A stretch of 64,000 nucleotides of DNA from a virus, in IMG/VR virus record IMGVR_UViG_3300028394_002801, positions 46,396 to 110,395 of that record. The stretch is one strand, 5' to 3'. The position numbers were made by a program, and so were the translations under genes. The notes under the pieces are model-generated. The model made no database searches. It was given only the letters and a program-made list of their open reading frames with translations, and was not told where the DNA came from. Each line of letters starts with the position of its first letter. The first letter of the stretch is position 1. Positions 23,755 to 45,411 of this stretch are shown here, one piece after another.

Positions 23755-24894
23755 ATGAAACTAATTACAGCTGAAAGCGTTTCCATTGGGCATCCAGATA
23801 AGGTTGCTGACCAAATTTCAGATGCAATACTTGATGCTTATCTAACTCTTGACCCAGATGCAAAGGTTGCTGTTGAAACACTTGTTAAAGACAATTGTGT
23901 TGTATTGGGGGGTGAAATATCCAGCACACATAGAATCAATTATGAAGAGGTTATTAAAAATACCGTAAAAGAAATTGGTTATACTAACCCAGCACATGGA
24001 TTTTATTACAAAAATATTACAATCATAAATTTGATTGGTCAGCAAAGCAGAGAAATAAATAATGCTGTTTTAAAAAATAGTGAAGAGTCACTTGGTGCTG
24101 GCGACCAAGGTTTTATGACTGGCTATGCAACAAATGAAACAAATACCTATATGCCAATTGGTATGTATGTTTCAAAGAAGTTGGTTGATTATGTGTATAA
24201 TAACATAGGATTTGGACCTGATATTAAAACACAAACAACAATTGAGTATGATGACAATACCAAAAGAATTCATACCATATTGGTATCAACTATGCATAGT
24301 GAAGATTTAACCCTATCTAATGTAAGGCAAATTATTATGAAAGGCATTAAAAATAATGATATGAATTTGGATGCTGATATTTTTGCCTTGATTGATGATA
24401 GAACCTCAATTGTTATTAACCCTGCTGGTTCTTGGAATGTTGGAGGTCCAGTTGCAGATTGTGGAGTCACAGGCAGAAAGATTGTGGTGGATCAATATGG
24501 ACCATATAACCCTGTTGGTGGTGGTGCATTTAGTGGAAAAGACCCAAGCAAAGTGGATAGAACTGGCGCATATTTAGCAAGATATATTGCAAAAAATATT
24601 GTGGCAGCAGGATATACAGATAAGTGTGCTGTTGAAATTGCTTATATGATTGGGGTGGATAAGCCAGCCTCATTAAGCATAAACACATTTGGACAGTATT
24701 CTGATGATTGGTTGGAAGGAGTTGTTTGCAGAATATTCCCCTTAACACCATCACAAATTATCAATCATTTTAAATTGAAAAGACCAATTTATCTTGAATC
24801 ATCAAGAGGTCATTTTGGAAATGATATAATGCCTTGGGAAAAATTGGATAAAATAGAAGACTTAAAACGTTTAGCCGTTATTCATAAGGGTTAA
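23755..24894 (+). CDS. metK: S-adenosylmethionine synthetase
   Basis: ESVSIGHPDK, GAGDQG, GVTGRKIVVD, GGGAFSGKDPSKVDR. Confidence 0.97.
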   Translation: MKLITAESVSIGHPDKVADQISDAILDAYLTLDPDAKVAVETLVKDNCVVLGGEISSTHRINYEEVIKNTVKEIGYTNPAHGFYYKNITIINLIGQQSREINNAVLKNSEESLGAGDQGFMTGYATNETNTYMPIGMYVSKKLVDYVYNNIGFGPDIKTQTTIEYDDNTKRIHTILVSTMHSEDLTLSNVRQIIMKGIKNNDMNLDADIFALIDDRTSIVINPAGSWNVGGPVADCGVTGRKIVVDQYGPYNPVGGGAFSGKDPSKVDRTGAYLARYIAKNIVAAGYTDKCAVEIAYMIGVDKPASLSINTFGQYSDDWLEGVVCRIFPLTPSQIINHFKLKRPIYLESSRGHFGNDIMPWEKLDKIEDLKRLAVIHKG

Positions 24895-25590
24895 ATAATT
24901 ATCAATAAAATCTGGGGGGTAGTTGGAATGAATCATTTTCTTAACTACCTCCTGTATTTTTTCCTCACGTGATAATCTTGGATTGGTGCTTAATCCATTT
25001 TCTATTGTATAACCAATCATATCACTTGTTGGCAATTTGTATTCTTTCTTTTCTTCTTTTGATTTAAGTCCCCCAATCTTTTCCCACACAACTACAAGCA
25101 AAGAACCATCATGCCATTTATACATCATTCCTTTGTATCCCATTTTTTCAAGCATACTTGACATATAAATGACCTGCATCTGATATGGTACATTATCACT
25201 ACCATATTTTTTTGCTGCGATATCATAGAGATTTAGGGGGTCAGCGTTGAATGGATATAAGTCACTTAATTTAACATCTACTTCATATAATGTGCCAGAA
25301 ACAATTCTTTCCTTCTGGTTTAAATTTGTATAAAAGAATATTCTTTTCTTACCCCACCATTGTTCTGAACTGGTATAACTATTCTCACCAAATTTAAGGG
25401 GATCCAAATATTCTAAATTGGATGGGCCAAAATGATATAACTTAACATATTCACCATCTGTTTCCAATTGAGAAAGCCACCTATCATTAAATAAGTGGCT
25501 ATCTGGTTTTTCTGGTAAATCATTTGCCTCATCTTCTTCGGAAATGACCATTATTTTTTTAATTCTAAAAATCTCTTCTTGTAAATTCAT
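24871..25590 (-). CDS. Putative ADP-ribosyltransferase-fold (ART-PolyVal-like) protein
   Basis: LYHFG...IFFYT...LYEVDV...LEKMGYKG; N-terminal MNLQEEIFRIKKIM leader. Confidence 0.45.
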   Translation of the reverse strand: MNLQEEIFRIKKIMVISEEDEANDLPEKPDSHLFNDRWLSQLETDGEYVKLYHFGPSNLEYLDPLKFGENSYTSSEQWWGKKRIFFYTNLNQKERIVSGTLYEVDVKLSDLYPFNADPLNLYDIAAKKYGSDNVPYQMQVIYMSSMLEKMGYKGMMYKWHDGSLLVVVWEKIGGLKSKEEKKEYKLPTSDMIGYTIENGLSTNPRLSREEKIQEVVKKMIHSNYPPDFIDNYLTLMNNG

Positions 25591-25629: not shown

Positions 25630-26886
25630 TTAACCAATATTTAATTGACCTGTAATCCTATCACACCAACCTTTTGATTTTGAATAAGGCCAAACAACCC
25701 AATACTTTGGTTGCTTTGTTGTTTGAAAATCCCTCCATATTTTGCAATATTTATCTGGGTCTCTCATCATAGTATTAATTTCATTTATATCAGCATCTTT
25801 CCTATATAAAGTTTCATCATTATCACCATGGAATGCCACCACCCAATATTCATAATCTGGTTCTGGAACTGAAACATATTGGATATCAATACAATGTCTA
25901 AATATAATTGAAAAACTATTCTCCCATTCTTCCTCTGTCTTATACTCCTCCTTAACTGGGGGGTTTTTCTTATCTATTGTCCATTGTTGAACTGCACGTT
26001 TGGCATAATGAATGCCAGCATATTTTTCATAATCTCTTAATGTTCTAACTGGGCCAAAACCATATAATCCATCATGCCCCTCTTGTTGAACACCATCCAC
26101 ACCAAACAATCGCTTGTTTAAATAATGTGCCCTCTCATTCTTTTTAACCCAATCTCTATCATCATCCCATTGTTTAACCTTTCCCTTTCTTGTATATTCA
26201 TGATATATAATTGGAAAATGTGGATGGAATAAATCATATCCCCAAGTATATGCCCTAACTGCAATTGAAATTTCCTCACCATGAAAATAATATTCTGGAT
26301 TATGTTGAACTTCATTTGCAAATTGTCCTAGGGTAAAGCAATAATGTGCTGAATAAAATCTTGCTGGAATTGGTTTATCTAAACTCCGCCAATCTGGAAT
26401 TGTTTCAGGCATAAAGAATACATTTCCCTCTGGGGAAAACCTATCAAAAACCATCCTCCAAGGTTCTTGCACCCTCCCTGCTGGGTCATTTGTTGGTTCA
26501 TAAGAACAAGCATAGGAAGTCAATAAAGGTTTCTTATACCCATCTTTCTGCAAGCCCTTAATTATTTTTATTAATGTATCATCCCAATCTTGATTAAAAC
26601 GCATATGTGAATCAATTTGAAGGGTATATTGCTCATTATTATATAATTGCTGAATTAAATTTCTTGCCCAACAAGCCCCATTGGATTCATTATATGGTAT
26701 ATCTAATATTTTAAATCTTTTATCTTTTCTCCATTTATCAAGATTATCAAAACCATCCTCATCAGCATATTGCCTTGCAATAGCAAAAACAAGGTTCTTT
26801 GGCTTCTTTGCCTTATCCAAAATGTCCTCAATGGTTTTAACTAATTCAGGATCGCGATAACTTGCAATCTGTACAAATATTTTCAT
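25630..26886 (-). CDS. GT60-like (Skp1/polypeptide GlcNAc-transferase family) glycosyltransferase
   Basis: KIFVQIASYRDPEL, GACWAR, LQIDSHMRF, FHGEEISIAVRAYTWGYDLF, YHEY. Confidence 0.85.
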   Translation of the reverse strand: MKIFVQIASYRDPELVKTIEDILDKAKKPKNLVFAIARQYADEDGFDNLDKWRKDKRFKILDIPYNESNGACWARNLIQQLYNNEQYTLQIDSHMRFNQDWDDTLIKIIKGLQKDGYKKPLLTSYACSYEPTNDPAGRVQEPWRMVFDRFSPEGNVFFMPETIPDWRSLDKPIPARFYSAHYCFTLGQFANEVQHNPEYYFHGEEISIAVRAYTWGYDLFHPHFPIIYHEYTRKGKVKQWDDDRDWVKKNERAHYLNKRLFGVDGVQQEGHDGLYGFGPVRTLRDYEKYAGIHYAKRAVQQWTIDKKNPPVKEEYKTEEEWENSFSIIFRHCIDIQYVSVPEPDYEYWVVAFHGDNDETLYRKDADINEINTMMRDPDKYCKIWRDFQTTKQPKYWVVWPYSKSKGWCDRITGQLNIG

Positions 26887-26932
26887 TGTCTTTTTTTTAT
26901 GAAAAATAAGATATTTAATTTAAATATAAAGG

Positions 26933-29269
26933 CTAATTCTCCCTTCTTTCATCTGGAGCATAGTGCATAATTCTATCATGCCATATTGGTGCGGCTAATA
27001 ATATTGCAGGTTTTAAATCACCCTCTAATGTCATTTGATACATATGTGACATCCATGTTTGCTCATAAGGGTGTGCCCATTTTGTGTCAATAAACATTTT
27101 TTTATTACCAGCCTTACTAACAATCATTGGCCAATTTGCATAATAAACCTCACCATCTATGTATGAAACCCCATCCATAACTCTTATATTTTTAAAGTTT
27201 GTTAATGGTGCATTTGGATCTAATCCGGTCACAGGTAGTTTATCATAATTTGGCCAATATTTTGAGCGAATAACTTGTGGTACATTATACCAAGAGCATT
27301 GTTTATCATTATCAAAATAAACTTCAGTAAATGTTAATTTGACAAAATCAAAACCATCTTTTAACATAATCTTATGCAAGATGTTATACAAATTAGGAAC
27401 ATATTTCCTAAACCCATTTCTACATACTTGCCCAACCATTTCTGGGGAATTTACAGTCATATCATCCTCAAAGAAAAACATAAAGTCAGCATCTGAATTA
27501 TGAAAATGTTCAGCAGCAGCTTGTCTCCCACCACAAATACCTGTATTACTACCTAAATCAATATATTCAAAATTATACTTTTCTGCAATTTTTTTGTTTT
27601 CAATTTTAGCATCCTCCTTTGTTGAATTATCTAATAACACCAAACTTGGTCTTGTTAACCACTCTGGTGTTTTTTCCATTGATTTTATGGTGTGCAAAAT
27701 TTGTTCTGGAAAATTAAAAGTTAACATATATAAATTTGTTTTATATGACAAAACATCTTTATCTGTTACTTTTATGGGATTTATAATTTTAGGTTTAACA
27801 ACTTCTGTTAATTTTACATTATTATCAACTAATGCTTGGGTGAATTTACCAATTAAACCATTTCCATCTAACTCATACCTTTTATATAAATCTGGTTCAT
27901 TGTATGACATTATGGCAAATAAACTTTCTTCTGTCCCCATATAACCAGAGTTTAAAGTTTTTTGCAGTAATGAATAATATGTTGAATTTGCTTCTCTTAT
28001 TTGATCCTTGTGCCCCCCAAACAAACCACCTCTACAAACATATTTAACATCTTGTTCTGCATACATATTCATAGCCTTTATATGAAACCCATGAATTTCA
28101 TTATTTGCCTCATATGGATAACTTAAAAATAAAAAAGGATTCCCATATTCTGTTATTGAATTTAAAACATCATCATGAACTAAATGATGGTAGGATACAG
28201 TATTGGTAATACCTGCATCAATCCAAAAGAAGTATTCAGTACCAAATGGATTCCATATTGAAGCATCATTAACCATAAACATTTTAGATTGCACAATTGG
28301 ATTATACCATTCTAATGATGCTTGGGGCGAATCTTTTAACCAAGATGCTAAATTAAACCAATTAGGGTCTGTTCTAATTTCTTGGGTCTTATCCCAAAAA
28401 GGTGCATACAATTTTTTTACATCATCTAATTCATATATTTTTACAATTGTATTCTGTTTCTTTCTTTTTTCCCAAACCAGATATTCATATTCTTTAGGTA
28501 TGTAAATAAATAAATTTTGAGGTATATCTAGTAATCTTTTAAAATTCTCAATATAATGGTCAAAAGGTCTTCCATTTCTATTTATATTCCAAAGACCTGT
28601 TACAATTGTTAAATTTTCATTACCTGGTAATTTATGTTCCACATAACCAGTAAATTCCTCAATACTATGTATCTGACCTTTTTTAGAGTTATTCTTTTTA
28701 ACACATAAAAAATTACCTCCATAAAAATATTCATGGTTGTCAATAATTTCTCTTAACTCAGCATTATAATCTCCAAATACATTTTTACCATCACCACCAC
28801 CACCAATGTCTTCAATAATATAATAACCACCAAATTTAACTCTATCAAATAGATTTCTAAATGTTGTCAATTGGGCAATAGCAGTATGTAAACCATCATC
28901 TAATATGATGTTAAAACTTAAATTATCTAAGTTTTTATTACAAGCATCTAAATCAGTAGAACTCATTAAGAATGTTTTAATCCTATCCTCCTCAATCATA
29001 CAATCAGGAGCAACATCAACACCATAAATGTTGCCATTCTCAAAATATTCTTTCCAAACTCTTAAACAACTTGAAGGTGTAAAATTTGGAAAATATTGTT
29101 TTATACCAATAAATGTAGATGGAATTTCAGGTTGTAGTGTGCCTAACCCAATTTCCAAATAATCTATTTTATCAAATCTTATTTTTTCAAATATTTTTGA
29201 ATAAAAGTAATCATACCCTGATACTTTTTTATCACTGCCATATTTATCTATAAGTTCTCCTAATTCCAT
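26933..29269 (-). CDS. Fusion: SAM-dependent methyltransferase + HtrL/YibB-like glycosyltransferase + GT-A domain
   Basis: YLEIG...IYGVD...IILDDGLH...GGYYIIED (methyltransferase); TIVTGLWNI...FFWIDAG...GGLFGG...GTEE (HtrL-like); FFFEDD (GT-A). The ORF track starts it at 29302. Confidence 0.75.
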   Translation of the reverse strand: MELGELIDKYGSDKKVSGYDYFYSKIFEKIRFDKIDYLEIGLGTLQPEIPSTFIGIKQYFPNFTPSSCLRVWKEYFENGNIYGVDVAPDCMIEEDRIKTFLMSSTDLDACNKNLDNLSFNIILDDGLHTAIAQLTTFRNLFDRVKFGGYYIIEDIGGGGDGKNVFGDYNAELREIIDNHEYFYGGNFLCVKKNNSKKGQIHSIEEFTGYVEHKLPGNENLTIVTGLWNINRNGRPFDHYIENFKRLLDIPQNLFIYIPKEYEYLVWEKRKKQNTIVKIYELDDVKKLYAPFWDKTQEIRTDPNWFNLASWLKDSPQASLEWYNPIVQSKMFMVNDASIWNPFGTEYFFWIDAGITNTVSYHHLVHDDVLNSITEYGNPFLFLSYPYEANNEIHGFHIKAMNMYAEQDVKYVCRGGLFGGHKDQIREANSTYYSLLQKTLNSGYMGTEESLFAIMSYNEPDLYKRYELDGNGLIGKFTQALVDNNVKLTEVVKPKIINPIKVTDKDVLSYKTNLYMLTFNFPEQILHTIKSMEKTPEWLTRPSLVLLDNSTKEDAKIENKKIAEKYNFEYIDLGSNTGICGGRQAAAEHFHNSDADFMFFFEDDMTVNSPEMVGQVCRNGFRKYVPNLYNILHKIMLKDGFDFVKLTFTEVYFDNDKQCSWYNVPQVIRSKYWPNYDKLPVTGLDPNAPLTNFKNIRVMDGVSYIDGEVYYANWPMIVSKAGNKKMFIDTKWAHPYEQTWMSHMYQMTLEGDLKPAILLAAPIWHDRIMHYAPDERREN

Positions 29270-29279
29270 ATATTTTTTT

Positions 29280-30128
29280 TTATTTAATGTAGCTTGATTC
29301 AATTATATTATTTAATTGACTTCTTAGATTAAGATCTGTATTATCATTTTTATCAACATTGTATCTAAAAAGATTACAACCTTCTTCACTTAAATGGCTG
29401 GTATGACCCAATATTGGAAATGATTTACCTACTATCTTTAAAAAATCTTCATATGATTCACATTTTTCATCATCTGGATGAAATGTGACAATTCTATTAC
29501 GTTTTTTAGTAGCAAAATAACCTGAAACTGCAAGATCGTCATCCCACAAATAATATTGCCTAATAAAGTCAAAAAAATCTTTTTCAAAAAATCTCCTTTT
29601 ATAGGAGATACTTTTATAATGTTGCAATATATCAACAATAGAATCTCTATTATTCCCTGAATAGAAATGGTCTCTTAAATCATTAAAAAATAATGATACT
29701 GAACCATCCTCATTTCTTGATTTTATACCATCATAACCAACAGGATTTTCAGGCCACTTTACTCGATTTTTTATATGTTCAGTTATTAAATTCTCATTAT
29801 AAATCATATCATCATCAACAACAATTATTATTTGTTCAGGATCAATAACTCTTTCTAATGTTGGTAGTAATTTTGTTATTGGACCAGTATCCTCTACTCT
29901 AAAAATTTTTAATTTATCATTATTACTATCCATTTCATTTAACCATTCAGGGAAAATGTATTCTTCATTTGTTCTCTTACAAACAAATGGGATATTTAAA
30001 TGAATTTCAAAGTTGTTGTATTTTTGATTTAATAAAGACTCTAACGCATACCTCATATCATACCCATATTGGCTATTTAATCTTGTTGGTATTGTTGTTA
30101 ATGTAAGTATAATTTTTTGCTCTTCCAT
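29280..30128 (-). CDS. GT-A-fold glycosyltransferase-like protein
   Basis: LTTIPTRL...DTGPITKLLP...IIVVDDDMIY. Confidence 0.7.
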   Translation of the reverse strand: MEEQKIILTLTTIPTRLNSQYGYDMRYALESLLNQKYNNFEIHLNIPFVCKRTNEEYIFPEWLNEMDSNNDKLKIFRVEDTGPITKLLPTLERVIDPEQIIIVVDDDMIYNENLITEHIKNRVKWPENPVGYDGIKSRNEDGSVSLFFNDLRDHFYSGNNRDSIVDILQHYKSISYKRRFFEKDFFDFIRQYYLWDDDLAVSGYFATKKRNRIVTFHPDDEKCESYEDFLKIVGKSFPILGHTSHLSEEGCNLFRYNVDKNDNTDLNLRSQLNNIIESSYIK

Positions 30129-30178
30129 AATATGTATAGTTAAATTTTAATAATTTTATATTTATTGTAAATGATATC

Positions 30179-31129
30179 TTATGTTAATTTAGTGAAATCT
30201 AATATTTTTATAGCTATATTAGCATTTGCCTTTATTGTCCCATTCTCAAGATACCATTTTCTACCATTTTCAGCAACAAAGTTAATATATTCATGGTCGT
30301 TTTTAACCTCATCATATCTTTTAATTACTCTATCTGAGAACTCTTCCCAAAAACCAGGGAATGGGTGACCACTATATTCTATTGGTATTTCATAATCATC
30401 AAAATCTACTGATATGTAGTGATAATCTGGGATTAGTTCATTATGAAATTTAGTAGTTAACTTTGTTCTAAATAATGCAGTACCTAACCCTAAAATTTCC
30501 ATATCCCTATAACATATTTCACCAGCGCCATTAATACTAAAATTTAAATTAAAACCATTTAACTCTCTTATATAATCACTTGGTGAAAGATAACTATTTT
30601 GTGTATTATACATATTAAAGCGATTATCACTTTCTAAAAATTTCCTAAAAAGATAAAGGTAGCCTCTAAATGTTAATTTTTCAGGGTATATGCGATTTGT
30701 TTTATTACTATATAAGGTTTCAATTAGCAATTCATTCTCTATGGTTGGACATGTGTATGAAAATGGCGTATATGTGCAATTTAGTGGTTTATAATAAATG
30801 TCATTTTTATGAACACCTGAACTTGTAATAATCTCAACACAATTTTCAATATCCCATAACGTCACATTAAATTTATTTATTACATCATCTAATTTATCCC
30901 AATATGAAATTAAGATATATTTTTTAGTCTCGGGATTTTCAATTATCATAAAATGTGGACCGTATTTTTGAGCATTACCCAAATCTACTTTATTCCTTAA
31001 TGGTGTGCTATTTATATGGTTAAATTCTATCTCTGGGTATTTTTCTAATAGATTATCATATATTTGTTTAAATGAACAAATATATGACCAATTGCAGAAA
31101 CCATCTTCAAAGTAAACATTTAATTTCAT
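30179..31129 (-). CDS. Glycosyltransferase-like protein (GT-B/exostosin-like C-terminus)
   Basis: FRG...YIREL...SINGAGEICYRDMEILGLG...LIPDYHY...AENGRKWY. Confidence 0.55.
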   Translation of the reverse strand: MKLNVYFEDGFCNWSYICSFKQIYDNLLEKYPEIEFNHINSTPLRNKVDLGNAQKYGPHFMIIENPETKKYILISYWDKLDDVINKFNVTLWDIENCVEIITSSGVHKNDIYYKPLNCTYTPFSYTCPTIENELLIETLYSNKTNRIYPEKLTFRGYLYLFRKFLESDNRFNMYNTQNSYLSPSDYIRELNGFNLNFSINGAGEICYRDMEILGLGTALFRTKLTTKFHNELIPDYHYISVDFDDYEIPIEYSGHPFPGFWEEFSDRVIKRYDEVKNDHEYINFVAENGRKWYLENGTIKANANIAIKILDFTKLT

Positions 31130-32013
31130 TATTTTAAGTGTTCAGGCATATTATATAAATTAGTACCCATATGTTTATCATAGTACCAAAATAGTTTATG
31201 TTTAAAGTCATCATTGTTAATTAAATTCTCTTCCTCAATTAATTTATAAATAAATTGAACTAATGGAGATAATGGACTTATTGACTGCCCATTTTCTGGC
31301 AACCAAAAACAACCATGCCTTATTATTTCATAATATGCAATTAAAAAATAATCCTGTCCATTAAATTCACTATGATTGAAGCATGATTTTAAATTACTTG
31401 ATGCACACTTAAAAGTATTATTTTCTTTTATTATTTGCAATGTGTTATCTAATTCATGTAAAGATATATTATTGTAAGTGTTTAATAAATTAAGTAATGA
31501 TTCTTTTTTCCAAATACATGGCTGTGTGCTAAATAAATATTGATGAGTATTTTTTCTTAAATACAAATTATCTTTAAATTTAGTATTAAAATTTGGAGTG
31601 TACTTATCAAGTACATTTATCCACCAAGATGTTACTTCACATAAATCATCTGGGCAAAAATAATCAATATTATCATTTTTTAATATATTGATTACTTCTG
31701 TTAAATCATCATATTTTGTTTCTGCAATAAAAAAATAATCATCACAGAAAAAGAAAATATATTCCTCTTTAATCTGGGGTAGAACATTTAGTAATGTTTC
31801 TGCAAAGTGTCCACCATTATTTTTAAAATTAACATTACCACTTAGATATGATACCTTATCTTCCAGTTGGAAATTATTGTCTTTAAATTTATTGCTAACT
31901 AAACTAACATTTAAACCTTCTTTTTTATTATGTTTAAAGAAGTTTTTAACTGCTAATTCACCTAATGAAACACTATTTTCATTTGTAAAAAATAAAAATC
32001 TTATATTATCCAT
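31129..32013 (-). CDS. GT-A-like glycosyltransferase
   Basis: EEYIFFFCDDYF, QPCIWKKE; likely start MDNIRF at 32013. Confidence 0.55.
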   Translation of the reverse strand: MDNIRFLFFTNENSVSLGELAVKNFFKHNKKEGLNVSLVSNKFKDNNFQLEDKVSYLSGNVNFKNNGGHFAETLLNVLPQIKEEYIFFFCDDYFFIAETKYDDLTEVINILKNDNIDYFCPDDLCEVTSWWINVLDKYTPNFNTKFKDNLYLRKNTHQYLFSTQPCIWKKESLLNLLNTYNNISLHELDNTLQIIKENNTFKCASSNLKSCFNHSEFNGQDYFLIAYYEIIRHGCFWLPENGQSISPLSPLVQFIYKLIEEENLINNDDFKHKLFWYYDKHMGTNLYNMPEHLK

Positions 32014-32017
32014 AACC

Positions 32018-32722
32018 CTATCTTTTATTATTGTGTTCATCCAACAAATAATAATGTAAATCAAATGATTCCATTGTAATATTATTACTTACCATATGTC
32101 TATATAAAATAGATTCAGGAGCCACAGAAGTCCCATAATTTAACCATGTATTAGGCAATTTATTATATAAATCAGAGTAAATATGCATCACATCTTTATT
32201 CCCATAAGCTATTTGGTCATTCATTGAACTATTCCAAGAACCTCGTAAAGGGCTATATATTGTATTTTCTTTTGGTTGTTGTAAAATTAAATCACTATTA
32301 AATAATATATCACCCCTTAACCTTATGATTAAATCATAATTTATACCACTATCTTCAACCATTTTCCCACATTTTTCTACTTTATACCACATACTTAACA
32401 TATTTTTACAATAAGGTGGAGGGGTTTCTCTATTATGGGTATATTTATTACTTTCTTCTTCAAAGAAATTATTTAATTTACTATATGACTCAAATTCAAA
32501 ATTTTTAGGTTTCAATTTATTCAAGACATCTTCTTTTATATCTTCAAGAATTTCATCATTATTTTTAATATCAAATTTAGTTCGGAATGTGCTAAAACCA
32601 TATATATCCCAAAAACTTAAATAAACATCAGAATCATATTTTGAAATTAAATGCTTAATGTTATTATCAACATTTTCTTTAAAATTTCTAAACATACCAG
32701 AGTAGCAAATAGCAATTTTCAT
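32018..32722 (-). CDS. Putative glycosyltransferase
   Basis: MKIAICYSGMFR...SMWYK...YDLIIRLRGD...NDQIAYG...PE, a family typical of viral glycan islands. Confidence 0.55.
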   Translation of the reverse strand: MKIAICYSGMFRNFKENVDNNIKHLISKYDSDVYLSFWDIYGFSTFRTKFDIKNNDEILEDIKEDVLNKLKPKNFEFESYSKLNNFFEEESNKYTHNRETPPPYCKNMLSMWYKVEKCGKMVEDSGINYDLIIRLRGDILFNSDLILQQPKENTIYSPLRGSWNSSMNDQIAYGNKDVMHIYSDLYNKLPNTWLNYGTSVAPESILYRHMVSNNITMESFDLHYYLLDEHNNKR

Positions 32723-32724
32723 AA

Positions 32725-33996
32725 TTATTTTAAATTAATTTCAACCTTTTCAGCCCAACCACGGGTTTCACTTAATCCCCAAAACACAACTTTGGTTGGA
32801 TTTTTATCTGTCATAAACATCTCCTCATAATGAATAGGTTTTCCATTTTGTAGGAAGTTTTTTAATCTATCATCATCAATAAATTTACTATTAATACCAA
32901 TACCATTCTCATCATCAAATGCTACTAATATGCTTTTATAATCATTTGCAGGTAATTGGTTTCTATCAATATTAACCAAATGATAAAATGAATACATAAA
33001 TGAATCCTCCCACTCTTTCTCATCTTCAATAACTGGATTTGGGGGAAATCTATTTTCTTTTGTGTATTTTTGAAATGATTTTTTCTTAAAATGTATTCCA
33101 GCATATTTCTCATAATCTCTAAGAGTTCTTACTGTACCTAAATCATATCCTGTTAAATCAAAACCATTATCTTCTGTTTGCAATAATTGCCTTATCTTTG
33201 ACCTCCCAATATCTTGTTGTTTCCACCACATATTATCACCACGTTTGCTTTGGTCATCCCAAACAAGTTTGCCATTCCTCTCTTCTCTCATTGTTGCGTG
33301 CCAAATAACAACTCTATGTGGGTGAAATAAATCATATCCATGTGTGAAACTACGCACACTCAAATTTATTTCTTCACCACTAAAATATATGTCTGGGTCA
33401 TGTTTTACATCTTTTGCCCATTTGTTTGGCCCAAATGCAAAATGACCGCTAAGAAATCTTGCGGGATAAGGCTTTGTTAAATTTTTCCAATTTGGGACAC
33501 CTGTTGGTCTAATGAATATTGTTCCATGTGGGTAAAAACTTGCAGCCTCAGATAACCAAGGCTCCATAACCCTCTTTTCTGGGTCATTGAATGGATCATA
33601 ATATGGTAAATATCCACAAATTATGGGGTTATAACCTTCCTTAACCAAATCTGCATACCAAGTTAATAATGTTGTGTCCCATCCTTTTGTGAATCTATGG
33701 TGAGCATCTAATTGTAATACAAAATCTTCATCTGTTAAAAGTTTTTCATTTATGATTGCTCTAGCATAAGGTAAACCTTTTGCCTCTGTATATAGCATAT
33801 CATATATTTTAAATCTTTTATCTTTTCTAAATTCATCCAAATTATCAAATTCATCATCAGGATGATATTGCCTACAAATACCAAAAACTAAATTTTTTGG
33901 ATTGTCTGCATTCTCTAATGCGTTTTTTATTGTTGGGATTAATTCAGGTTCTCTATATGCTGGTAAGTGAATTAAAATCTTTTTTGCCTTTGTCAT
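32725..33996 (-). CDS. GT60-like glycosyltransferase (second paralog)
   Basis: LPAYREPEL, GLPYAR, LQLDAHHRF, FSGEEINLSVRSFTHGYDLF; colinear with 25630-26886. Confidence 0.82.
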   Translation of the reverse strand: MTKAKKILIHLPAYREPELIPTIKNALENADNPKNLVFGICRQYHPDDEFDNLDEFRKDKRFKIYDMLYTEAKGLPYARAIINEKLLTDEDFVLQLDAHHRFTKGWDTTLLTWYADLVKEGYNPIICGYLPYYDPFNDPEKRVMEPWLSEAASFYPHGTIFIRPTGVPNWKNLTKPYPARFLSGHFAFGPNKWAKDVKHDPDIYFSGEEINLSVRSFTHGYDLFHPHRVVIWHATMREERNGKLVWDDQSKRGDNMWWKQQDIGRSKIRQLLQTEDNGFDLTGYDLGTVRTLRDYEKYAGIHFKKKSFQKYTKENRFPPNPVIEDEKEWEDSFMYSFYHLVNIDRNQLPANDYKSILVAFDDENGIGINSKFIDDDRLKNFLQNGKPIHYEEMFMTDKNPTKVVFWGLSETRGWAEKVEINLK

Positions 33997-34074
33997 ATGA
34001 TTTACATTATATAGAATATATAATTCATAATCATATAAAATAAATAATTGTCAATTTAATTTATAAATATATAA

Positions 34075-34114
34075 CAAAGAAAAAACCACCAATAGATAGG
34101 GGGTTCTTTCTTGT
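34075..34114 (-). terminator. Probable terminator after the fibre gene
   Basis: Minus strand: aagaaagaaccccc-tatctatt-ggtggttttttctttg, an imperfect stem plus a U tract. Confidence 0.45.
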
Positions 34115-34140
34115 TATTTTATTTGTGATAATTTAATCAT

Positions 34141-37100
34141 CTATACTTGTCTTGGAATAGTAGGTGGTAGTTCATTTATAATGAAATGATTTCTCCCTGT
34201 AATAGTATTATAAGCGGTATCATTTCGTAGGTTTTGATATATTGAAGGACGAATAGTATCACCTACATTTAATGATAATACAATTCTTGTTGTTGTTGTT
34301 GGAATTTTAACAGTTGAAGTAGTGTATGGCCAAAAGTTTGCAACAAAAATAGCCGTACTATTATTATAATTGATAATAGTTGCAAACTCTCTATCTAGTG
34401 CTAAAGGAGTAACATTATCAAGCATCATAGCAAATGAAATATCATAAATACCTGCACGAGGACAAGTAAATATTCCTGTTGTATTATTCCATGCACTAGG
34501 TGTATTATTAACAAGTGTGCTCCAATTAACTATCGTTGTTTCTGAATTATAGGGGATTGATTGTGCTGTGGCTTTATTTAATGATAAATAAACTGGTGTA
34601 ATCATAGTAGAGCCTGTAATAACTCTGCCAGCACTTGAAATACCCAAATTGGTTATAGATGTCCCTGAACCTATTGTGGTTATGTTTAATGTTGTTGCAG
34701 TTATAGCGTTAATATTTGTGCTACCTGTTGCAGTTAAGTTATTTATGTTAATTGAACTAGTCCAAGAAGTATCATAATCTGTGCTTGAATTTTTAACTAA
34801 TAGTTGGTTAATTGTTCCTCCTGTTTTTTGAAAAGAAGTCCCAGAAGTCCCGCTTGTGCCAGAAGTTCCGGTTGTGCCAGAAGTCCCGCTTGTACCAGAA
34901 GTTCCGGTTGTGCCAGAAGTCCCACTTGTGCCAGAAGTTCCGGTTGTGCCAGAAGTCCCTCTTGTGCCAGAAGTTCCGGTTGTGCCAGAAGTTCCGGTTG
35001 TGCCAGAAGTTCCGGTTGTGCCAGAAGTCCCACTTGTGCCAGAAGTCCCACTTGTGCCAGAAGTTCCGGTTGTGCCAGAAGTACCGGTTGTGCCAGAAGT
35101 ACCGGTTGTGCCAGAAGTCCCTCTTGTGCCAGAAGTTCCGGTTGTGCCAGAAGTTCCGGTTGTGCCAGAAGTTCCGGTTGTGCCAGAAGTTCCGGTTGTG
35201 CCAGAAGTCCCACTTGTGCCTGATGTACCACTTGTACCAGAAGTTCCGGTTGCGCCAGAAGTCCCGCTTGTGCCTGAAGTGCTACTTGTCCCACTTGTAC
35301 CAGAAGACCCTCCTGTACCAGAAGAACCGCTTGTACCCCCTGTGCCTGATGTACCACTTGACCCATTAAGCCCAGGTGCTCCTTGTATTTCACCCATATT
35401 AACCCACCCATCAACATTTGCAGCAGATGAAGTTGGGTCATATATATATAACTCTGATGTATCTTGTAATATGTATGTATCTAAGGGGTCTGGTGTTGGA
35501 TGGTTGGCTATCATATCTGCATAACTAGCCTCAACACCCTTTGGTGATAATGTCTGTCCATTATTACCTGAAACAACCATTAAAGACCATTTAGAGTTAA
35601 TGTCAGGTGTGGTCTCATTTATTGAAACATTTTCAGTAGCAATATAAACTCTATAAGGACTTCCAAATGTTACAACATTATTTTTAACATATGCACTAAT
35701 ATTTGACCATCCCCCAAGGAAAATAAGCCCTGATCCACTTGTACCACTTGATCCTGATGTTCCAGATGAACCACTTGTCCCATTTATCCCTGATGTACCA
35801 GATGAACCACTTGTGCCTGCTGTCCCACTTGTGCCTGATGTCCCACTTGTACCAGAAGTTCCGGTTGTGCCTGATGTGCCAGATGAGCCACTTGTCCCAT
35901 CTATACCTGATGTACCAGATGAACCACTTGTACCTTCTGTTCCACTTGTCCCTGAACTACCAGATGAGCCACTTGTTCCTTCTGTGCCTGATGTTCCAGA
36001 TGAACCACTTGTCCCATCTATCCCCGATGTCCCAGATGAACCGCTTGACCCTGATGTTCCATTTGTTCCGCTACTACCAGATGAACCACTTGTTCCATCT
36101 ATTCCTGATGTTCCATTTGCACCACTTGTTCCTGATGAACCAGATACTCCTATTTCACCACTTGTTCCTGATGAACCAGATACTCCTATTTCACCACTTG
36201 TTCCTGAACTACCACTTGCTCCAATAGAACCACTTGTGCCTGATGAACCACTAGAACCGCTTGCACCAGAACTTCCAGTTCCACCACTTGTTCCTGATGT
36301 TCCAGTTGTACCACTTGTTCCTGATGTGCTTGATGTTCCACTACTTCCAGATGTGCCACTTGTTCCATCTATTCCTGATGTCCCTGATGAACCACTTGTG
36401 CCTGATGTTCCTGATGTTCCAGATGTTCCAGATGTTCCAGATGTGCCAGAACTACCTGATGTGCCAGAACTACCTGATGTGCCACTTGTCCCATTTATTC
36501 CTGATGTTCCCCTTGTACCTGATGTCCCTGATGTTCCACTACTTCCAGATGAACCACTTGTCCCTGATGTTCCACTACTCCCAGATGAACCACTTGTTCC
36601 ACTACTCCCAGATGAACCACTTGTCCCACTACTTCCAGATGAACCACTTGTTCCTTCTGTGCCTGATGTTCCACTACTCCCAGATGAACCACTTGTTCCC
36701 AATGTTCCTAATGTTCCACTTGTGCCACTTGAACCATTTGTGAATCCAGTTATAGAGATGATTCCGCCATAATTTGTATATAATTCAATTGTTGTTGACC
36801 CTGAAAGGTATTCACCAGATATTATTTTGGTGTCAGTTCCCAAAAACTTAACCCAAGTTGCATTATCTCTTGTTGCGCCATCAACACCTTCAATGGTGGA
36901 TCCACTCCAAGCCGCAATGAAATTTCTTCCTGCTTCTGACCGTGTGTTTATTGTTGTTGTGAATGTTGTGAATGTGGCTGCTGATAATCCTGTTAAACCA
37001 CTTAATGCAAACCATAATTCCTCATAATTTGATATTGTGTGTTGATATACTGTTTTTGTTTCTTGAACATAAACTAACATACCCAATCTTCTTCTTCCTG

Positions 37101-37359
37101 ATGATATATTATCAGAATTTAATGTAAGTGTATTTGCCCTATAACCAACAGTATAATTTATTGGTATTGTATTACCTGTGTTAATTATTAAACCAGTTTG
37201 GTCATATGTTGAATAATTTAAGTCGCTTAGACTAAAAACCTCCATATAACCACCAATTAAACTGGCTGAAAACGTTGTCCCAAATACAGATGTATTTGAT
37301 ACAGTTTGTGGCCCACCTAATTGGGTATTTGAAATTGGATTTTTATATGGAAATGACAT
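34141..37359 (-). CDS. Collagen-like (Gly-Thr/Ser-Ser/Thr) fibre protein with C-terminal C1q-like domain
   Basis: Two Gly-X-Y tracts. [20 protein letters not shown] is a fibre motif; [15 protein letters not shown]...LSLNVGDTI is a C1q pattern. Confidence 0.78.
34835..35383 (-). repeat. Gly-X-Y coding repeat tract 2 (GTS/GTT)
   Basis: 9/18-bp units such as gtgccagaagttccggtt. Confidence 0.92.
35728..36735 (-). repeat. Gly-X-Y coding repeat tract 1 (GTS/GSS)
   Basis: 9-bp periodic units such as ccagatgaa / ccacttgtt / cctgatgtt. Confidence 0.92.
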
Positions 37360-37361
37360 AA

Positions 37362-39773
37362 TTAAATTTTTATATTACCTTTTATATAAATATCATTTAA
37401 TAGTTTATTTGTGTTTGGTAAATTCAATAATGATAAGAATAATACTCTATATGTTCCTGATGGTATTGCTGCACCTGATGTTACTGTGACATTCTGTGAT
37501 GCAATTGAATCTGGAATTCCTTGGTCTGAATAATCTGTTCCACAAGGTGTAGAACCTGCATTTATAAACATATTGGTCATTGTATTACCAACCCCATCAA
37601 TAGGTATCCATATTGAGTAAAAGTATTTTATATCTGTGTTTATTTGGCTTGCACCCACTCTAATTGTTTCAAATGTATATTGATTTTGTGGGCATCCAAA
37701 TGAATCTTCTGAATAACTACTTGTTTGCTTTATTGCCCCACTCAAGAATATTGGTGGATATTTATAATTCCCTATATTGCTTGTAAATGCTGGATAATGG
37801 GCATATGCATTCATATTGTTTGAATAATTATCTTCATCTGGAACGCCATAGAATTGGTAGCCACCCCAAGTTGCAAGACTTTCATTTAACATATAATTCT
37901 CCAAAGTAACACCATCATCAAATGTTTGAGGTTCAGCAAATATATAAGCATAATATGCTCTTGCAGATGGGGTTGGGGTTATGTTTGGTGGTATTGGTTG
38001 GGCATCAGGGTTGAATGGATCAATTAATGAATATCTTGTTTTTAATAGATTAAAATTATGTCTTATTTGCCCAGCATTTAAAGGTTCAATATACATCCTA
38101 AATGCACTTAAATCACCCACCAAACTGCCACCAAATTCTTTTTCAAGAATAATATTTGTTGTTAATCCTAAATATGGTGTGTTATTTAATATATCTGTTG
38201 TTGATAGTTCTGGGTCTTGTATTAACTCATTGCTTGTGCAAGATGATAATGTTAAAGAATCCTTTAACCCTTGTGTTCCCCCACCTATGGAAATATTGAA
38301 AGGAACACCAATTTGCCTTTCTTTTAGAGTATTTAATGGTCTTGGGATAATTTCCTCAAAATTATCAATAATGAAGAATATTTTACCATTTATGTATATT
38401 CTTAAATTTCCATTTCTATAATTTTTTGTATTAATCCATGATTGGTCAAAGTTAACCACTTCAATTGAAGTATTTGTTTCTCCGCTTGTTTTTGGTAGTA
38501 TTAATTCAACACTTCTATCAGTTGTTGTTGCGGTATATTGACTAGATATTAATAAACCTAACCCTCCAAGTTCGTTTAAATCACAATTTTCAATTAATCT
38601 ATCTCTAACAAATACTGCATCAATCTGAACCCAATTTTCATTTTGAATATAAGTTGTATTTTTGAATTGGTCAAATATTCCTTTTGTTGAACACCATTGA
38701 TTTATTGTTGCTCCTGATGTTTCACAAGTTCCAGTTAGTGTATATGTTTTTACACAAACTATTGGATTTCCTGAATCACCGCTTAATTGGATTGATAGGG
38801 CATTTGAAACAGAATCATATAAGGGATTTGGTTCTGTGAATATGACATCTTTATCATAATTTGTCACCCCAGTTATGGGATAAACCTTATTGCAAGTTGA
38901 TGCTGAATAGGTGGATGCTGAATAAGTTGGATTACAATTGCAAGTATCCAAACAAGTAAGTCCTGATGTTGGTCTTGTATAATCACTATATGATATTGGA
39001 TGACCATCAGCAAAATGATAAAACTTATTTTCAGCCCTTGCTCCAAGATAGAAGAATGTTCCTTTATTTTTTGGATATCTAACATTCAAACCATTTGTGT
39101 CACCTGTCCATCTATATTTAATTAAAAACTCTGCTGTCCAACCAAGTTCAACTCTTTCTGGGAATATTTCATAATTATATCCAAATATTTTATAAAATCC
39201 TTGGTAAAACCCACCATTCAATTCTGCATATCTTCCAATATTTTGTTGTGTTTTACCTGTTAAATTATATGTATAACTATTGTCATTATAAATCCTATTT
39301 GTTGATGTGGTGATACCTGATATTGGATGTAACTTTAATCTTCTATCATACTTTAATCTATTATATTTATCTACTGAATTTGTGTATAATCCAGTATTAA
39401 TTTGAATGGTTTCACCTGAAAAATTTAAAGTTAATCCATTGTCAATTCCTGTTAGTCCAACATCACATATTGAAAATCTATTTTGATATGTATTTGCTGT
39501 TAAATTATAATTTTCTGGATTATAATAATTTTTTGAAATAATAATATCATTACTAAAAACTCCACAATTTATACAAATTGATGTTTCTGAATTATTTAAA
39601 TCAAAATTGAATGGCATTCTATTGCCATCATCTTCAGCAATTAACTTGGATGAGAATACAGTTTCTGTATCATAATTCAACTCATCTGATGTCAAACTTA
39701 TATCAATAATCTCATTCACAGGTCTAAACCCAATCTTATTGAAATTATACTGACTAATATTTTGATAACTCAT
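37362..39773 (-). CDS. Large virion structural protein, LamG-like elements
   Basis: GWTAEF...LRIYING...ISIGGG...FRMYIEPL; co-oriented with the fibre gene. Confidence 0.6.
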   Translation of the reverse strand: MSYQNISQYNFNKIGFRPVNEIIDISLTSDELNYDTETVFSSKLIAEDDGNRMPFNFDLNNSETSICINCGVFSNDIIISKNYYNPENYNLTANTYQNRFSICDVGLTGIDNGLTLNFSGETIQINTGLYTNSVDKYNRLKYDRRLKLHPISGITTSTNRIYNDNSYTYNLTGKTQQNIGRYAELNGGFYQGFYKIFGYNYEIFPERVELGWTAEFLIKYRWTGDTNGLNVRYPKNKGTFFYLGARAENKFYHFADGHPISYSDYTRPTSGLTCLDTCNCNPTYSASTYSASTCNKVYPITGVTNYDKDVIFTEPNPLYDSVSNALSIQLSGDSGNPIVCVKTYTLTGTCETSGATINQWCSTKGIFDQFKNTTYIQNENWVQIDAVFVRDRLIENCDLNELGGLGLLISSQYTATTTDRSVELILPKTSGETNTSIEVVNFDQSWINTKNYRNGNLRIYINGKIFFIIDNFEEIIPRPLNTLKERQIGVPFNISIGGGTQGLKDSLTLSSCTSNELIQDPELSTTDILNNTPYLGLTTNIILEKEFGGSLVGDLSAFRMYIEPLNAGQIRHNFNLLKTRYSLIDPFNPDAQPIPPNITPTPSARAYYAYIFAEPQTFDDGVTLENYMLNESLATWGGYQFYGVPDEDNYSNNMNAYAHYPAFTSNIGNYKYPPIFLSGAIKQTSSYSEDSFGCPQNQYTFETIRVGASQINTDIKYFYSIWIPIDGVGNTMTNMFINAGSTPCGTDYSDQGIPDSIASQNVTVTSGAAIPSGTYRVLFLSLLNLPNTNKLLNDIYIKGNIKI

Positions 39774-42468: not shown

Positions 42469-43689
42469 ATGAGTAAAAAGATAAAAGTATTAGTTATACC
42501 ATCTGATAGGTCAGGTGTTTCTAAATTCCGGTCTATTGACCCCCACCTTTTCCTACAATCAGAATACCCTGTTGATTTTCATGTGGATATTAATTACGAG
42601 CCACCAATGGATGATATGAATTTCTGGAAGGATTATGAAATTGTTGCATTCCATAGAAGTATTGGGCATGATTTTGATAAGGCAAAGAATCTTATACTTA
42701 CATTAAATAAAATGGGTATTATCACAGTTTGTGATATTGATGACTATTGGATGCCAACAAAAGACCATCCAATACATGAGATTATAAAAATCCATAAGAT
42801 AAATGAAAAGATTATTGAAAATTTAAAGGCGGCAACTTATGTAACTACAACAACAAGGATATATGCAGATTTGATAAGAAAGTATAATAAGAATGTTTTT
42901 GTTTTTCCAAATGCAATCAATCCAAAGGAAGCACAATTTAATGAACCAACATTGGAATCTGATAGGGTTAGAGTTGGTTGGTTAGGTGGATCAAGTCATT
43001 TGGCGGATCTTAATTTATTGGACAAATCATTTAGTTCATTAACAAAATATTCAAATAAATTACAATTTGTATTATGTGGATTTGATACTAGGGGTTCTGT
43101 TACTGAAATAAATGCTGATACAAAAGAACAAAAAAAGAGAAACATAAAACCAGAAGAAACTGTATGGGCAAGGTATGAGGAAATATTTACCCAAAAATAT
43201 TCCATAATAAGTGAGGATTATAAGAAATATTTGCTTAAATTTGTGCAAGAACCTTATGATAATGAAAATAATGAGGCTTATGTTAGAGCATGGACAAAAC
43301 CCGTTACAACATATGCAAAGAATTATTCAAAATTTGACATATCTTTGGCACCAATAAAGAATCATATTTTTAATGAAATGAAGTCCCAATTAAAAGTAAT
43401 TGAGGCTGGCTTTTATAAAAAAGCAATAATTGCTTCAAACTTTGGCCCTTATACTATTGATTTGAAACATGGATTAGATAAAGGCACTTTTGTAAAGGGA
43501 GGAAATGCTTTGCTTGTTGATTCTGATAGGAATGGGGTTGATTGGGCAAAGTATATTGAAAAGTTAATGAAAAATCCCAACCTGGTAAAAGACCTTGGAG
43601 AAAACTTATATGAAACAGTAAAGGATACATATTCATTAATTACTGTAACAAAAAATAGAGCAGCATTTTATAAGTCACTAATTAAATAA
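42469..43689 (+). CDS. GT-B (GT4-like) glycosyltransferase
   Basis: DIDDYW, FPNAI, VGWLGGSSHLADL, DISLAP..FNEMKSQLKVIEAG. Confidence 0.82.
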   Translation: MSKKIKVLVIPSDRSGVSKFRSIDPHLFLQSEYPVDFHVDINYEPPMDDMNFWKDYEIVAFHRSIGHDFDKAKNLILTLNKMGIITVCDIDDYWMPTKDHPIHEIIKIHKINEKIIENLKAATYVTTTTRIYADLIRKYNKNVFVFPNAINPKEAQFNEPTLESDRVRVGWLGGSSHLADLNLLDKSFSSLTKYSNKLQFVLCGFDTRGSVTEINADTKEQKKRNIKPEETVWARYEEIFTQKYSIISEDYKKYLLKFVQEPYDNENNEAYVRAWTKPVTTYAKNYSKFDISLAPIKNHIFNEMKSQLKVIEAGFYKKAIIASNFGPYTIDLKHGLDKGTFVKGGNALLVDSDRNGVDWAKYIEKLMKNPNLVKDLGENLYETVKDTYSLITVTKNRAAFYKSLIK

Positions 43690-43696
43690 CTACAAC

Positions 43697-44398: not shown

Positions 44399-44784
44399 GA
44401 ATTTGGGTAAATGGTTGCTTTGACGTATTGCATATTGGGCATATATCATTACTTGAATATGCCAAAACACTTGGACATGTACTTGTTGGTATTGACTCTG
44501 ATGAAAGGGTTAAACAATTAAAAGGTGATGATAGGCCAATAAATTCTGTTGATGATAGGATTAAGATGTTAAAATCTTTGAAATTTGTGGATGATGTTTG
44601 TGTGTTTGACACAGATACAGAGTTAAACGACATTTTATACCTATACCAACCAGATGTTATTGTGATTGGTGATGAATATAAGTCAAAGACTATAATTGGT
44701 TCAGAACATGCAAAAAGAATTGATTTTTTTGAAAAAAAGTATGATATTAGTACAACTAAAATTTTAAATAATAAAAACAAATAA
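44395..44784 (+). CDS. Cytidylyl/adenylyltransferase (RfaE domain II/TagD-like)
   Basis: NGCFDVLHIGH, VGIDSD, KGDDRPIN, ISTTKI. Confidence 0.88.
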   Translation: MRIWVNGCFDVLHIGHISLLEYAKTLGHVLVGIDSDERVKQLKGDDRPINSVDDRIKMLKSLKFVDDVCVFDTDTELNDILYLYQPDVIVIGDEYKSKTIIGSEHAKRIDFFEKKYDISTTKILNNKNK

Positions 44785-44785
44785 A

Positions 44786-45400: not shown

Positions 45401-45411
45401 TACAAAAAAAT

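Follow-up and report, generated by a model that had tools for sequence, protein, structure and literature searches.

A 64,000-nucleotide stretch of viral DNA (hereafter the window; bases 46396-110395 of the 110,395-base IMG/VR virus record IMGVR_UViG_3300028394_002801) carries on its minus strand, at 25630-39773 in window coordinates, a block of genes in which two glycosyltransferases of the GT60 type bracket five further open reading frames (ORFs) and lie downstream of a collagen-like fibre gene. We consider it reasonably probable that this block serves the phage to O-glycosylate, in the cytoplasm, structural proteins of its own that contain Ser/Thr repeats. The family and fold of the enzymes, the anatomy of the genes and the co-occurrence with repeat genes were observed directly, and from them we infer the acceptor, the sugar, the order of the steps, the virion location and the benefit. 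The record is 36% complete (CheckV), which implies a genome of about 300 kb. Since it bears genes for a tail sheath (2-2938, minus strand) and a family-B DNA polymerase (PolB; 19414-22092, minus strand) and has a phage-like PHROG profile, the source is a jumbo myophage; its G+C content is about 30%.

The two enzymes, GT60a (25630-26886, minus strand, 418 residues) and GT60b (32725-33996, minus strand, 423 residues), had been described in the initial annotation as GT60-like paralogs akin to the polypeptide N-acetylgalactosaminyltransferases (ppGalNAc-transferases, family GT27). The profile and structure searches that it proposed confirmed both points. GT60a and GT60b match the Pfam family PF11397, 'Glycosyltransferase (GlcNAc)' (GlcNAc, N-acetylglucosamine), with 219 bits (E 1.6e-64) and 161 bits (E 6.9e-47) respectively, where the cut-off is 21; the matches cover positions 2-43 and 95-351 of the 352 in the profile. 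They are 41% identical to each other end to end. In an alignment of 44 GT60a homologues (35-82% identity), the D92-S93-H94 (DxH) motif is kept in at least 90% of the sequences, H229 is invariant and E204/E205 are conserved. An AlphaFold2 (AF2) model of GT60a reached a predicted local distance difference test score (pLDDT) of 95.7 and a predicted template-modelling score of 0.91. Searched with Foldseek, this model retrieved only polypeptide GalNAc-transferases at ranks 1 to 42. With VIA-align, the top 29 PDB entries were again all ppGalNAc-transferases (Z 19.1-22.2, root-mean-square deviation 3.3-3.7 over 261-284 residues), generic GT-A enzymes ranking below them (Z at most 18.0), and the whole ppGalNAc-transferase catalytic domain aligned onto residues 1-327, the GT-A catalytic domain. 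These matches came from the fold search alone; phmmer, run with GT60a on the PDB sequences, gave nothing significant. Both enzymes are true PF11397/GT60-type GT-A proteins, and the closest solved folds are those of ppGalNAc-transferases.

Behind its catalytic domain GT60a carries a conserved β-rich domain of about 90 residues (approximately 325-415; window 25642-25914), in which W407 is nearly invariant. Nothing equivalent exists in the ppGalNAc-transferase catalytic domains that were matched, and shorter phage GT60 homologues (about 300-330 residues, BFVD) lack this domain, which could be an acceptor-binding module. The family is large: GT60a has matches in at least 7,539 clusters at 90% identity with E 1e-5 or better, the best being 68-93% identical, and in 4,366 clusters at 50% identity with E 1e-3 or better. 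Other uncultured phages, Megaviridae and Pandoravirus also have proteins of similar fold. GT60b orthologues (61-93% identity) were found in 35 IMG/VR loci, mostly in tandem behind a GT60a-like gene. Some metagenomic proteins (P0125-P0135), of up to 2,461 residues, hold two to four tandem GT60-like domains.

The replacement of DxD by DxH is common to GT27 and GT60 alone, and the two families are grouped in the GT-A phylogeny because both O-glycosylate Ser/Thr of polypeptides (PMC7185993). All characterised GT60 enzymes modify polypeptide Thr/Ser or hydroxyproline, typically in mucin-like repeats; those of Dictyostelium and Trypanosoma cruzi start mucin-type O-glycans by placing α-GlcNAc on Thr-rich repeats (PMC8724618; PMC3769586).

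The window offers two candidate acceptors. When its 66 long ORFs were screened for Ser/Thr-rich or collagen-like sequence, exactly two were retained, and both had been pointed out in the initial annotation. One is the collagen-like fibre (34141-37359, minus strand), composed of an N-terminal domain, (G-T/S-S/T)n repeats and a C1q-like C-terminal head. Strict G-X-Y triplets account for 462 residues, in blocks at residues 209-343, 362-541 and 696-842, with Thr at X in 69% and Ser at Y in 77% of the triplets and no proline at all. Pfam recognises Collagen (E 5.5e-66) and C1q (26.8 bits, cut-off 23.7), and the head gives weak C1q and cerebellin matches in the PDB (E 0.002-0.03). On these sequence features, Thr-rich G-X-Y repeats and a C1q-like head, the predicted protein is classed as a BclA-like collagen. 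Its tail-fibre matches in PHROG were discounted, as they stem from the collagen repeats. Across other freshwater metagenomes the collagen region (window 34195-36700) varies by in-frame insertions and deletions of 9, 18 and 27 nucleotides, and the head is the most divergent part: in sequencing run X3 substitutions cluster at 34195-34533 while GT60b is nearly unchanged. This pattern fits an exposed, evolving fibre. The head was partly uncovered in two sequencing runs, from which we draw no inference.

The other candidate, the TPT protein (5386-9168, minus strand), consists of an N-terminal domain of about 340 residues, some 670 residues of TPTxTx repeats, one-third of which are Pro, and a LamG/ConA-like C-terminal domain (Laminin_G_3, E 4e-19; phrog_8510 'virion structural protein'). 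It lies four genes away from the tail sheath gene; in between are three tandem ORFs of 167-168 residues (3857-5373) and a Fib_succ_major-domain protein (2999-3829), all on the minus strand. Domain architecture and gene neighbourhood suggest that both the fibre and the TPT protein are located on the virion.

The association of GT60 with such repeat genes extends beyond the window. In 74 IMG/VR loci of GT60a relatives, 116 Ser/Thr-rich or collagen ORFs were counted in 429 kb upstream of GT60 and none in 695 kb downstream. A same-strand ORF of this kind ends within 1.5 kb upstream of GT60 in 44 of the 55 loci with enough flank, which belong to one clade and so count as roughly one evolutionary event. 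The upstream ORFs, which differ greatly between the loci of the clade, either place TPTPT-type linkers behind a small conserved N-domain or are (GTS)n collagens like that of the window. A codon-degenerate search for TPTxTxTPT found the pattern in 8 of 10 GT60-bearing phage records, reversed-pattern controls giving none, and in none of five jumbo phages that lack GT60 (Atu_ph07, SCTP-2, G, phiKZ and RSL1; 1.9 Mb together). The eight positive records include a second lineage (PolB about 25% identical) whose TPT array exceeds 5 kb and lies about 150 kb from the cassette. The cultured phages XacN1 and Xoo-sp13, each of which contains the pattern 34 times, are also among the eight; the XacN1 matches are located in giant ORFs, e.g. 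ORF325, ORF350 and ORF384. Conversely, when IMG/VR contigs of at least 40 kb were picked by a TPT array alone, 17 of 39 carried PF11397, and 12 of 19 among those of at least 90 kb. Among 50,697 cultured phage records, only 4 have a GT60 homologue.

Five same-strand ORFs (26933-32722) are bracketed by GT60a and GT60b. The initial annotation had taken all five for glycosyltransferase or methyltransferase genes, an assignment that held for p789 and p282; p311 and p316 are leads only, and p234 is no more than DUF7796-like. The product of p789 (26933-29302, minus strand) combines a methyltransferase-like N-terminus (PHROG 21658 at 1e-6, Pfam Methyltransf_31 at 0.004) with an HtrL_YibB domain (E 3e-12) and a weakly matching GT2 domain. 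Its HtrL-GT2 part is 38-76% identical across all phage relatives, XacN1 ORF330 included, and is the conserved partner of GT60. The p282 product (29280-30128, minus strand) is, by profile search, a GT-A glycosyltransferase resembling GT45 α-GlcNAc transferases. It has an invariant DDD, and a 17-sequence profile built on it matches the GlcNAc-transferase domain of PmHS2, the Pasteurella heparosan synthase (E 5e-7), and KfiA (0.064). Of the leads, p316 (30179-31129, minus strand) is a probable glycosyltransferase of Glyco_trans_1_2/GT90-like type, with ESM Atlas feature matches of 0.95-0.96 to PF13524 and PF05686 clusters and no Pfam match, and p311 (31129-32064, minus strand) is a probable GT-A glycosyltransferase with conserved CDDYF and QPCIWK motifs and a below-cut-off match to TIGR04440 (E 5e-4). 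The remaining ORF, p234 (32018-32722, minus strand), matches DUF7796 below cut-off (E 2.9e-5) and phrog_13607 (1e-20), falls in phage clusters of the ESM Atlas and is present in one to three copies in other cassettes. Profile searches of p316, p311 and p234 against PDB sequences gave nothing significant.

None of the seven cassette proteins contains a membrane segment, the highest 19-residue Kyte-Doolittle mean of the block being 1.03. The cassette glycosyltransferases are predicted from this to be soluble and able to act in the cytoplasm. Pfam searches detected no polyprenyl-phosphate transferase, flippase, ABC exporter, polymerase or other lipid-carrier family either in the cassette or in the second glycan island described below. 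The genes do not have the make-up of a lipid-carrier-dependent O-antigen or capsule locus, although host enzymes could still supply such functions.

Related phages share a conserved gene order: a p803 homologue, variable Ser/Thr-rich or collagen ORFs, GT60, variable genes, HtrL-GT2, p124 and PolB. In the window, p803 (37362-39773, minus strand) heads the fibre/glycosylation block and has neither a Pfam nor a PHROG match. Its 22 homologues share residues 1-590 (54-83% identity) and differ in total length (584-1843 residues) and in their C-termini, many of which are Ser/Thr-rich. An AF2 model of residues 1-600 built with 23 sequences was unusable (pLDDT 38.6). The 'MACSKY' N-terminal domain of relatives is absent from the window's 110-kb contig, and the non-repeat domains of the 'MACSKY' proteins fall in no informative PHROG family.

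From their distribution, the variable genes appear to behave like a serotype cassette. The locus L007, whose PolB is 91% identical to that of the window, has a different second GT60 (69% identical to GT60a), and a segment at L007:2766-7593 replaces p234-p282 with an FkbM methyltransferase, a PLOD-type glycosyltransferase domain of the type associated with collagen lysyl hydroxylases, a GT10 and a gene resembling the RMNT/CmcI rhamnosyl-O-methyltransferases. Cassette content has thus been swapped between phages with 91%-identical PolB. GT60b-type loci elsewhere follow the same plan, in tandem behind a GT60a-like gene, with varying numbers of p282, p316, p311 and p234 members and HtrL-GT2 last. 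The GT60 and HtrL-GT2 pair is found in the Xanthomonas phages XacN1 and Xoo-sp13, and the two genes adjoin in 28 of 80 bacterial loci (L087-L166), from Gemmatimonadota, Acidobacteriota, Bacteroidota and Proteobacteria. The 81 bacterial neighbour proteins show no consistent theme and include no polysaccharide-export genes. In Burkholderiaceae, GT60 copies lie near a few fimbrial and type VI secretion genes, which we note as a lead only.

Two genes next to the cassette may be connected with it. An S-adenosylmethionine synthetase gene, MetK (23755-24894, plus strand), matches each of the three Pfam domains of that enzyme (E 1e-26 to 1e-52) and may provide the methyl donor. Just downstream of GT60a on the same strand, p239 (24871-25590, minus strand) matched no family in Pfam or PHROG searches. 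A homologue 71% identical stands at the equivalent place in L007 and in a further close relative, L012; whether p239 is part of the glycosylation system is uncertain.

The initial annotation had also marked a second glycan island on the plus strand (42469-56680), where Pfam indeed identifies sugar-nucleotide genes, glycosyltransferases and an acyltransferase. It comprises GT2_5+GT4 (45412-47046), GT25 (47070-47693), GT11 (47697-48485), a hexapeptide acyltransferase (48898-49431), a GT10-like gene (49403-50230), GDP-mannose 4,6-dehydratase (GMD; 50828-51823), a HAD+nucleotidyltransferase fusion (51828-53180), GT1 (54826-55872) and GT2 (55874-56680), interspersed with unrelated genes such as an exonuclease, a dUTPase and PhoH. 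Adjoining the GT10-like gene is a DegT/aminotransferase-like ORF of 200 residues (50233-50835, plus strand) that matches only the N-terminal part of the profile and may be a truncated or split sugar aminotransferase.

These elements can be assembled into a pathway. GT60a and GT60b, as retaining GT-A enzymes with DxH similar to ppGalNAc-transferases, would start the glycans in the cytoplasm, before or during virion assembly, by attaching a first sugar to Thr/Ser hydroxyls in the (GTS)n fibre and the TPTxTx stalks. By analogy with the characterised enzymes, this sugar is probably an N-acetylhexosamine taken from a UDP-sugar. The HtrL-GT2 protein and the strain-variable, predicted soluble glycosyltransferases p282, p311 and p316 would then lengthen the glycan, and the methyltransferase-like domain of p789, fed by the phage MetK, would methylate it. 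GDP-6-deoxyhexose-type donors and fucosyltransferase-like enzymes would come from the second island. Extension and methylation, which the initial annotation had proposed, are plausible in view of the further glycosyltransferases, the methyltransferase-like domain, MetK and the sugar O-methyltransferases found in a relative's cassette. The likely benefits would be a stabilised proline-free triple helix and extended stalks that are stiffened and shielded, and the variable cassette would give strain-specific glycan coats. Glycosylated Thr stabilises some invertebrate and spore collagens; given that imino acids and charge pairs are both missing from the (GTS)n helix, the same function is plausible here.

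Partial parallels exist among known systems. The BclA collagens have a C1q-like head, as does the phage fibre. The SgtA-BclA3 pair of Clostridioides difficile and Bacillus BclA likewise join a Thr-rich collagen-like G-X-Y protein with an adjoining glycosyltransferase gene: SgtA, encoded beside bclA3, puts O-GlcNAc on Thr/Ser of collagen-like GPT repeats, an O-linked N-acetylhexosamine being the first step, as we propose by analogy for the phage (PMC7157674). The phage repeat differs in being G-T-S, with no proline and Thr at X, where BclA3 has GPT; moreover the structure concerned is a virion and not a spore, and a terminator separates the phage fibre from the glycosyltransferase gene. The phage enzymes also resemble protist GT60 enzymes (Dictyostelium Gnt1/Gnt2, T. 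cruzi pp-αGlcNAcT) and GT27 in having a PF11397, GT-A fold with DxH in place of DxD and no ricin-type lectin domain, and the Thr-rich mucin-like repeats that serve the protist enzymes as acceptors have their counterpart in the candidate acceptors of the phage. In contrast to the protist enzymes, they are predicted to be soluble without a membrane anchor, and they have the extra β-rich C-terminal domain of about 90 residues and the HtrL-GT2 partner. Giant viruses combine their own sugar-nucleotide synthesis with glycosyltransferases for virion surface proteins (Mimivirus fibrils, chlorovirus Vp54). The window shares with them virus-encoded sugar-nucleotide genes and glycosyltransferases, and PF11397-like folds occur in Megaviridae and Pandoravirus; these are, however, viruses of eukaryotes with other acceptors (N-linked in chloroviruses) and other enzyme sets.

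Among phages, glycosylation of the capsid and tail tube has been described in mycobacteriophages (Freeman et al. 2023, as cited in PMC12619734). According to that citing source, these phages encode glycosyltransferases that work in the host cytoplasm and O-glycosylate structural proteins of the phage itself; the capsid and tail-tube subunits carry the glycans on short tails at their C-termini. The candidates of the window are instead hundreds of repeat residues in fibres and stalks, with GT60-type initiators and phage sugar-nucleotide genes. The closest experimental parallel is XacN1, whose virions contain at least two Schiff-positive proteins that the authors attributed to ORF328/ORF334 (PMC5852040). 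ORF334 is homologous to GT60 (43% identity), and HtrL-GT2 has its homologue in ORF330 (38% identity). Like the window, XacN1 has GT60 and HtrL-GT2 with variable genes between them, beside baseplate and giant-protein genes, and TPT arrays; it differs in having a single GT60, a carbamoyltransferase in the cassette and no adjoining collagen fibre. The Schiff-positive bands were not assigned to proteins, and their link to ORF334 is untested. The searchable literature yielded no account of GT60-type enzymes in phages, nor of phages with mucin-like TPT stalks or glycosylated collagen fibres.

The proposal of the initial annotation that the phage O-glycosylates its own virion is favoured by the enzyme family, the predicted solubility, the link to repeat genes and the Schiff-positive proteins of XacN1, while several observations weigh against it. 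The closest relatives, L007 and L012 (PolB 91-96% identical), keep two GT60 genes without a collagen fibre at this place, and in the tandem-GT60 lineage a Ser/Thr-rich ORF lies within about 9 kb upstream in only 2 of 35 loci. In bacteria, any Ser/Thr-rich ORF is nearby in just 15 of the 80 loci, and the neighbours are heterogeneous. PT-rich linkers occur without glycosylation. The co-occurrence of GT60 with repeat genes, a check proposed in the initial annotation, came out positive in all three counts (44/55, 8/10 against 0/5, and 17/39), but these are drawn from about three phage lineages that are not phylogenetically independent, so that the numbers are suggestive. The non-repeat domains of the fibre and the TPT protein fall in no informative PHROG family, and for acylation, the third modification initially proposed, the only candidate is the hexapeptide transferase of the second island. 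In the searchable literature, no acceptor, donor or product is reported for any phage or bacterial member of the family. A strong terminator, suspected from the start, stands between the fibre gene and GT60b: directly after the fibre stop codon, in the 144-bp gap before GT60b, an intrinsic-terminator-like hairpin with a U run (34071-34117, minus strand) folds at -20.3 kcal/mol (z -4.83; 0 of 200 shuffles equally stable). It was missed by a simple terminator scan and found on folding the region. The fibre and the cassette therefore need not be co-transcribed. Lastly, HtrL_YibB is named after a gene of the E. coli lipopolysaccharide (LPS) core cluster.

This name fits an alternative in which the cassette acts during infection on an envelope glycan of the host, be it LPS (core or O-antigen), capsule or a wall polysaccharide, and remodels it, perhaps to prevent superinfection or make release easier; the fibre genes would then be neighbours by coincidence. 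GT25, GT11 and GT10 indeed have many LPS or lipooligosaccharide members, many bacteria have GT60 paired with HtrL-GT2 but no Ser/Thr-rich ORF beside them, and in its modularity and its variation between strains the cassette resembles an O-antigen locus. We nevertheless regard such remodelling as unlikely: the proteins are all predicted to be soluble and come without a polyprenyl-phosphate transferase, flippase, polymerase or ligase, the 81 bacterial neighbour proteins tallied include none for polysaccharide export, the fold is closest to the polypeptide-modifying GT27, and the link to TPT and collagen genes is left unexplained. A polypeptide target need not be part of the virion, and GT60 might act on host or phage cytoplasmic proteins in a host takeover, as Gnt1 acts on Skp1 or as bacterial glycosylating effectors do. 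Gnt1, the founding GT60 enzyme, is cytoplasmic and modifies one regulatory protein; solubility of the phage enzymes and the retention of GT60 in close relatives without the collagen fibre would agree with this. An enzyme with a single target would, however, have no need of a sugar-nucleotide island, variable cassettes and at least five enzymes for extension and methylation, and the positional and genome-wide association with repeat proteins, together with the virion glycoproteins of XacN1, favours structural targets, which makes a non-virion target quite unlikely in our view.

The remaining alternatives concern the acceptor chemistry, and we hold both to be very improbable. Gnt1 acts on hydroxyproline, and the high proline content of the TPT repeats would allow hydroxyproline to be the acceptor in the stalk, as in Skp1 or the hydroxyproline-rich glycoproteins of plants, provided that a prolyl hydroxylase is present. 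Genes for 2OG-Fe(II) oxygenases exist in the relatives G006 and G007, but none of family PF13640 was found in the window's contig, in G008 (90% complete), in G001 or in XacN1, and such a mechanism is inapplicable to the proline-free collagen repeats. Hypermodification of phage DNA bases with glycans to evade restriction, for its part, is a common role of phage glycosyltransferases (Pyle et al. 2024, as cited in PMC12619734). Of four near-complete relatives, three have genes of the thymidylate-synthase family, and a dUTPase/dCTP-deaminase-like gene lies within the second island. On the other hand, no known DNA glycosyltransferase fold was detected by fold search or Pfam, the best matches being polypeptide transferases; G008, the closest of the relatives searched, lacks the thymidylate-synthase match, which does not distinguish ThyA from a hydroxymethylase; and the Ser/Thr-repeat link would again have no explanation.

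To our knowledge, virion glycosylation has been experimentally demonstrated in very few phages, and GT60 has so far been studied in protists only. As phage-encoded virion glycosylation is already known, what is new here is the GT60-type route and the repeat targets. If O-glycosylation of the phage's own repeat proteins is confirmed, mucin-type initiation by GT60-like enzymes would be a different enzyme route for phage virion glycosylation, directed at a different class of targets, namely collagen-like and Thr-Pro stalks in which the repeat residues number hundreds. It would provide the first activity for prokaryotic and viral GT60 members and an explanation for the possible stability of a proline-free collagen triple helix, and strain-variable coats would have consequences for the stability and adhesion of the phage, for its recognition of hosts and for its escape from antibodies. 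The lineage is abundant, with at least 7,500 clusters, and the stretch recurs near-identically in freshwater and lake metagenomes of at least 10 studies from 2017 to 2025; no RNA dataset is among the listed sequencing runs that contain it. Homologous cassettes are available in the cultured phages XacN1 and Xoo-sp13 and in the Stenotrophomonas phages CM1 and RAS14.

We also put forward, more tentatively and as a possibility we would not yet bet on, a broader idea: that a portable core of GT60 initiator and HtrL-GT2 extender, with hypervariable glycosyltransferases and methyltransferases enclosed between the two, represents an unrecognised and widespread bacterial-type mucin O-glycosylation pathway. 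In phages it would cover the collagen-like and TPT fibres of virions with glycan coats that differ between strains, as a serotype system in thousands of freshwater jumbo phages. In bacteria (Gemmatimonadota, Acidobacteriota, Bacteroidota, Verrucomicrobiota and Burkholderiaceae) the core might perform general cytoplasmic protein O-glycosylation, and (Gly-Thr-Ser)n might fold only when glycosylated.

The motif ATATTTAT occurs 74 nucleotides upstream of GT60b (34063-34070, minus strand). In the form (T)ATATTTAT(A) it is 17-fold enriched in upstream regions across the contig, and it stands 20-34 nucleotides before the start codons of the sheath, fibre, adaptor, leucine-rich-repeat array ends, p239 and other genes. 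The sites include window positions 2967, 9880, 17123/17141, 17858, 22582, 25603/25614, 37393 and 61532, those at 25603 and 25614 being p239's own. Judged from this distribution, ATATTTAT is a probable phage promoter element; since it also precedes non-structural genes, it gives no timing of cassette expression.

Elsewhere in the window, two adjoining ORFs of 500 residues (60030-63056, plus strand) have no Pfam or PHROG match. An SNF2-family helicase (9945-12815, plus strand) gives 'terminase' PHROG matches in addition to its SNF2 domain (residues 145-783), within which LAGLIDADG_3 and Hom_end match at residues 389-476. The position of these matches suggests that the insert is probably an intein with a homing endonuclease.

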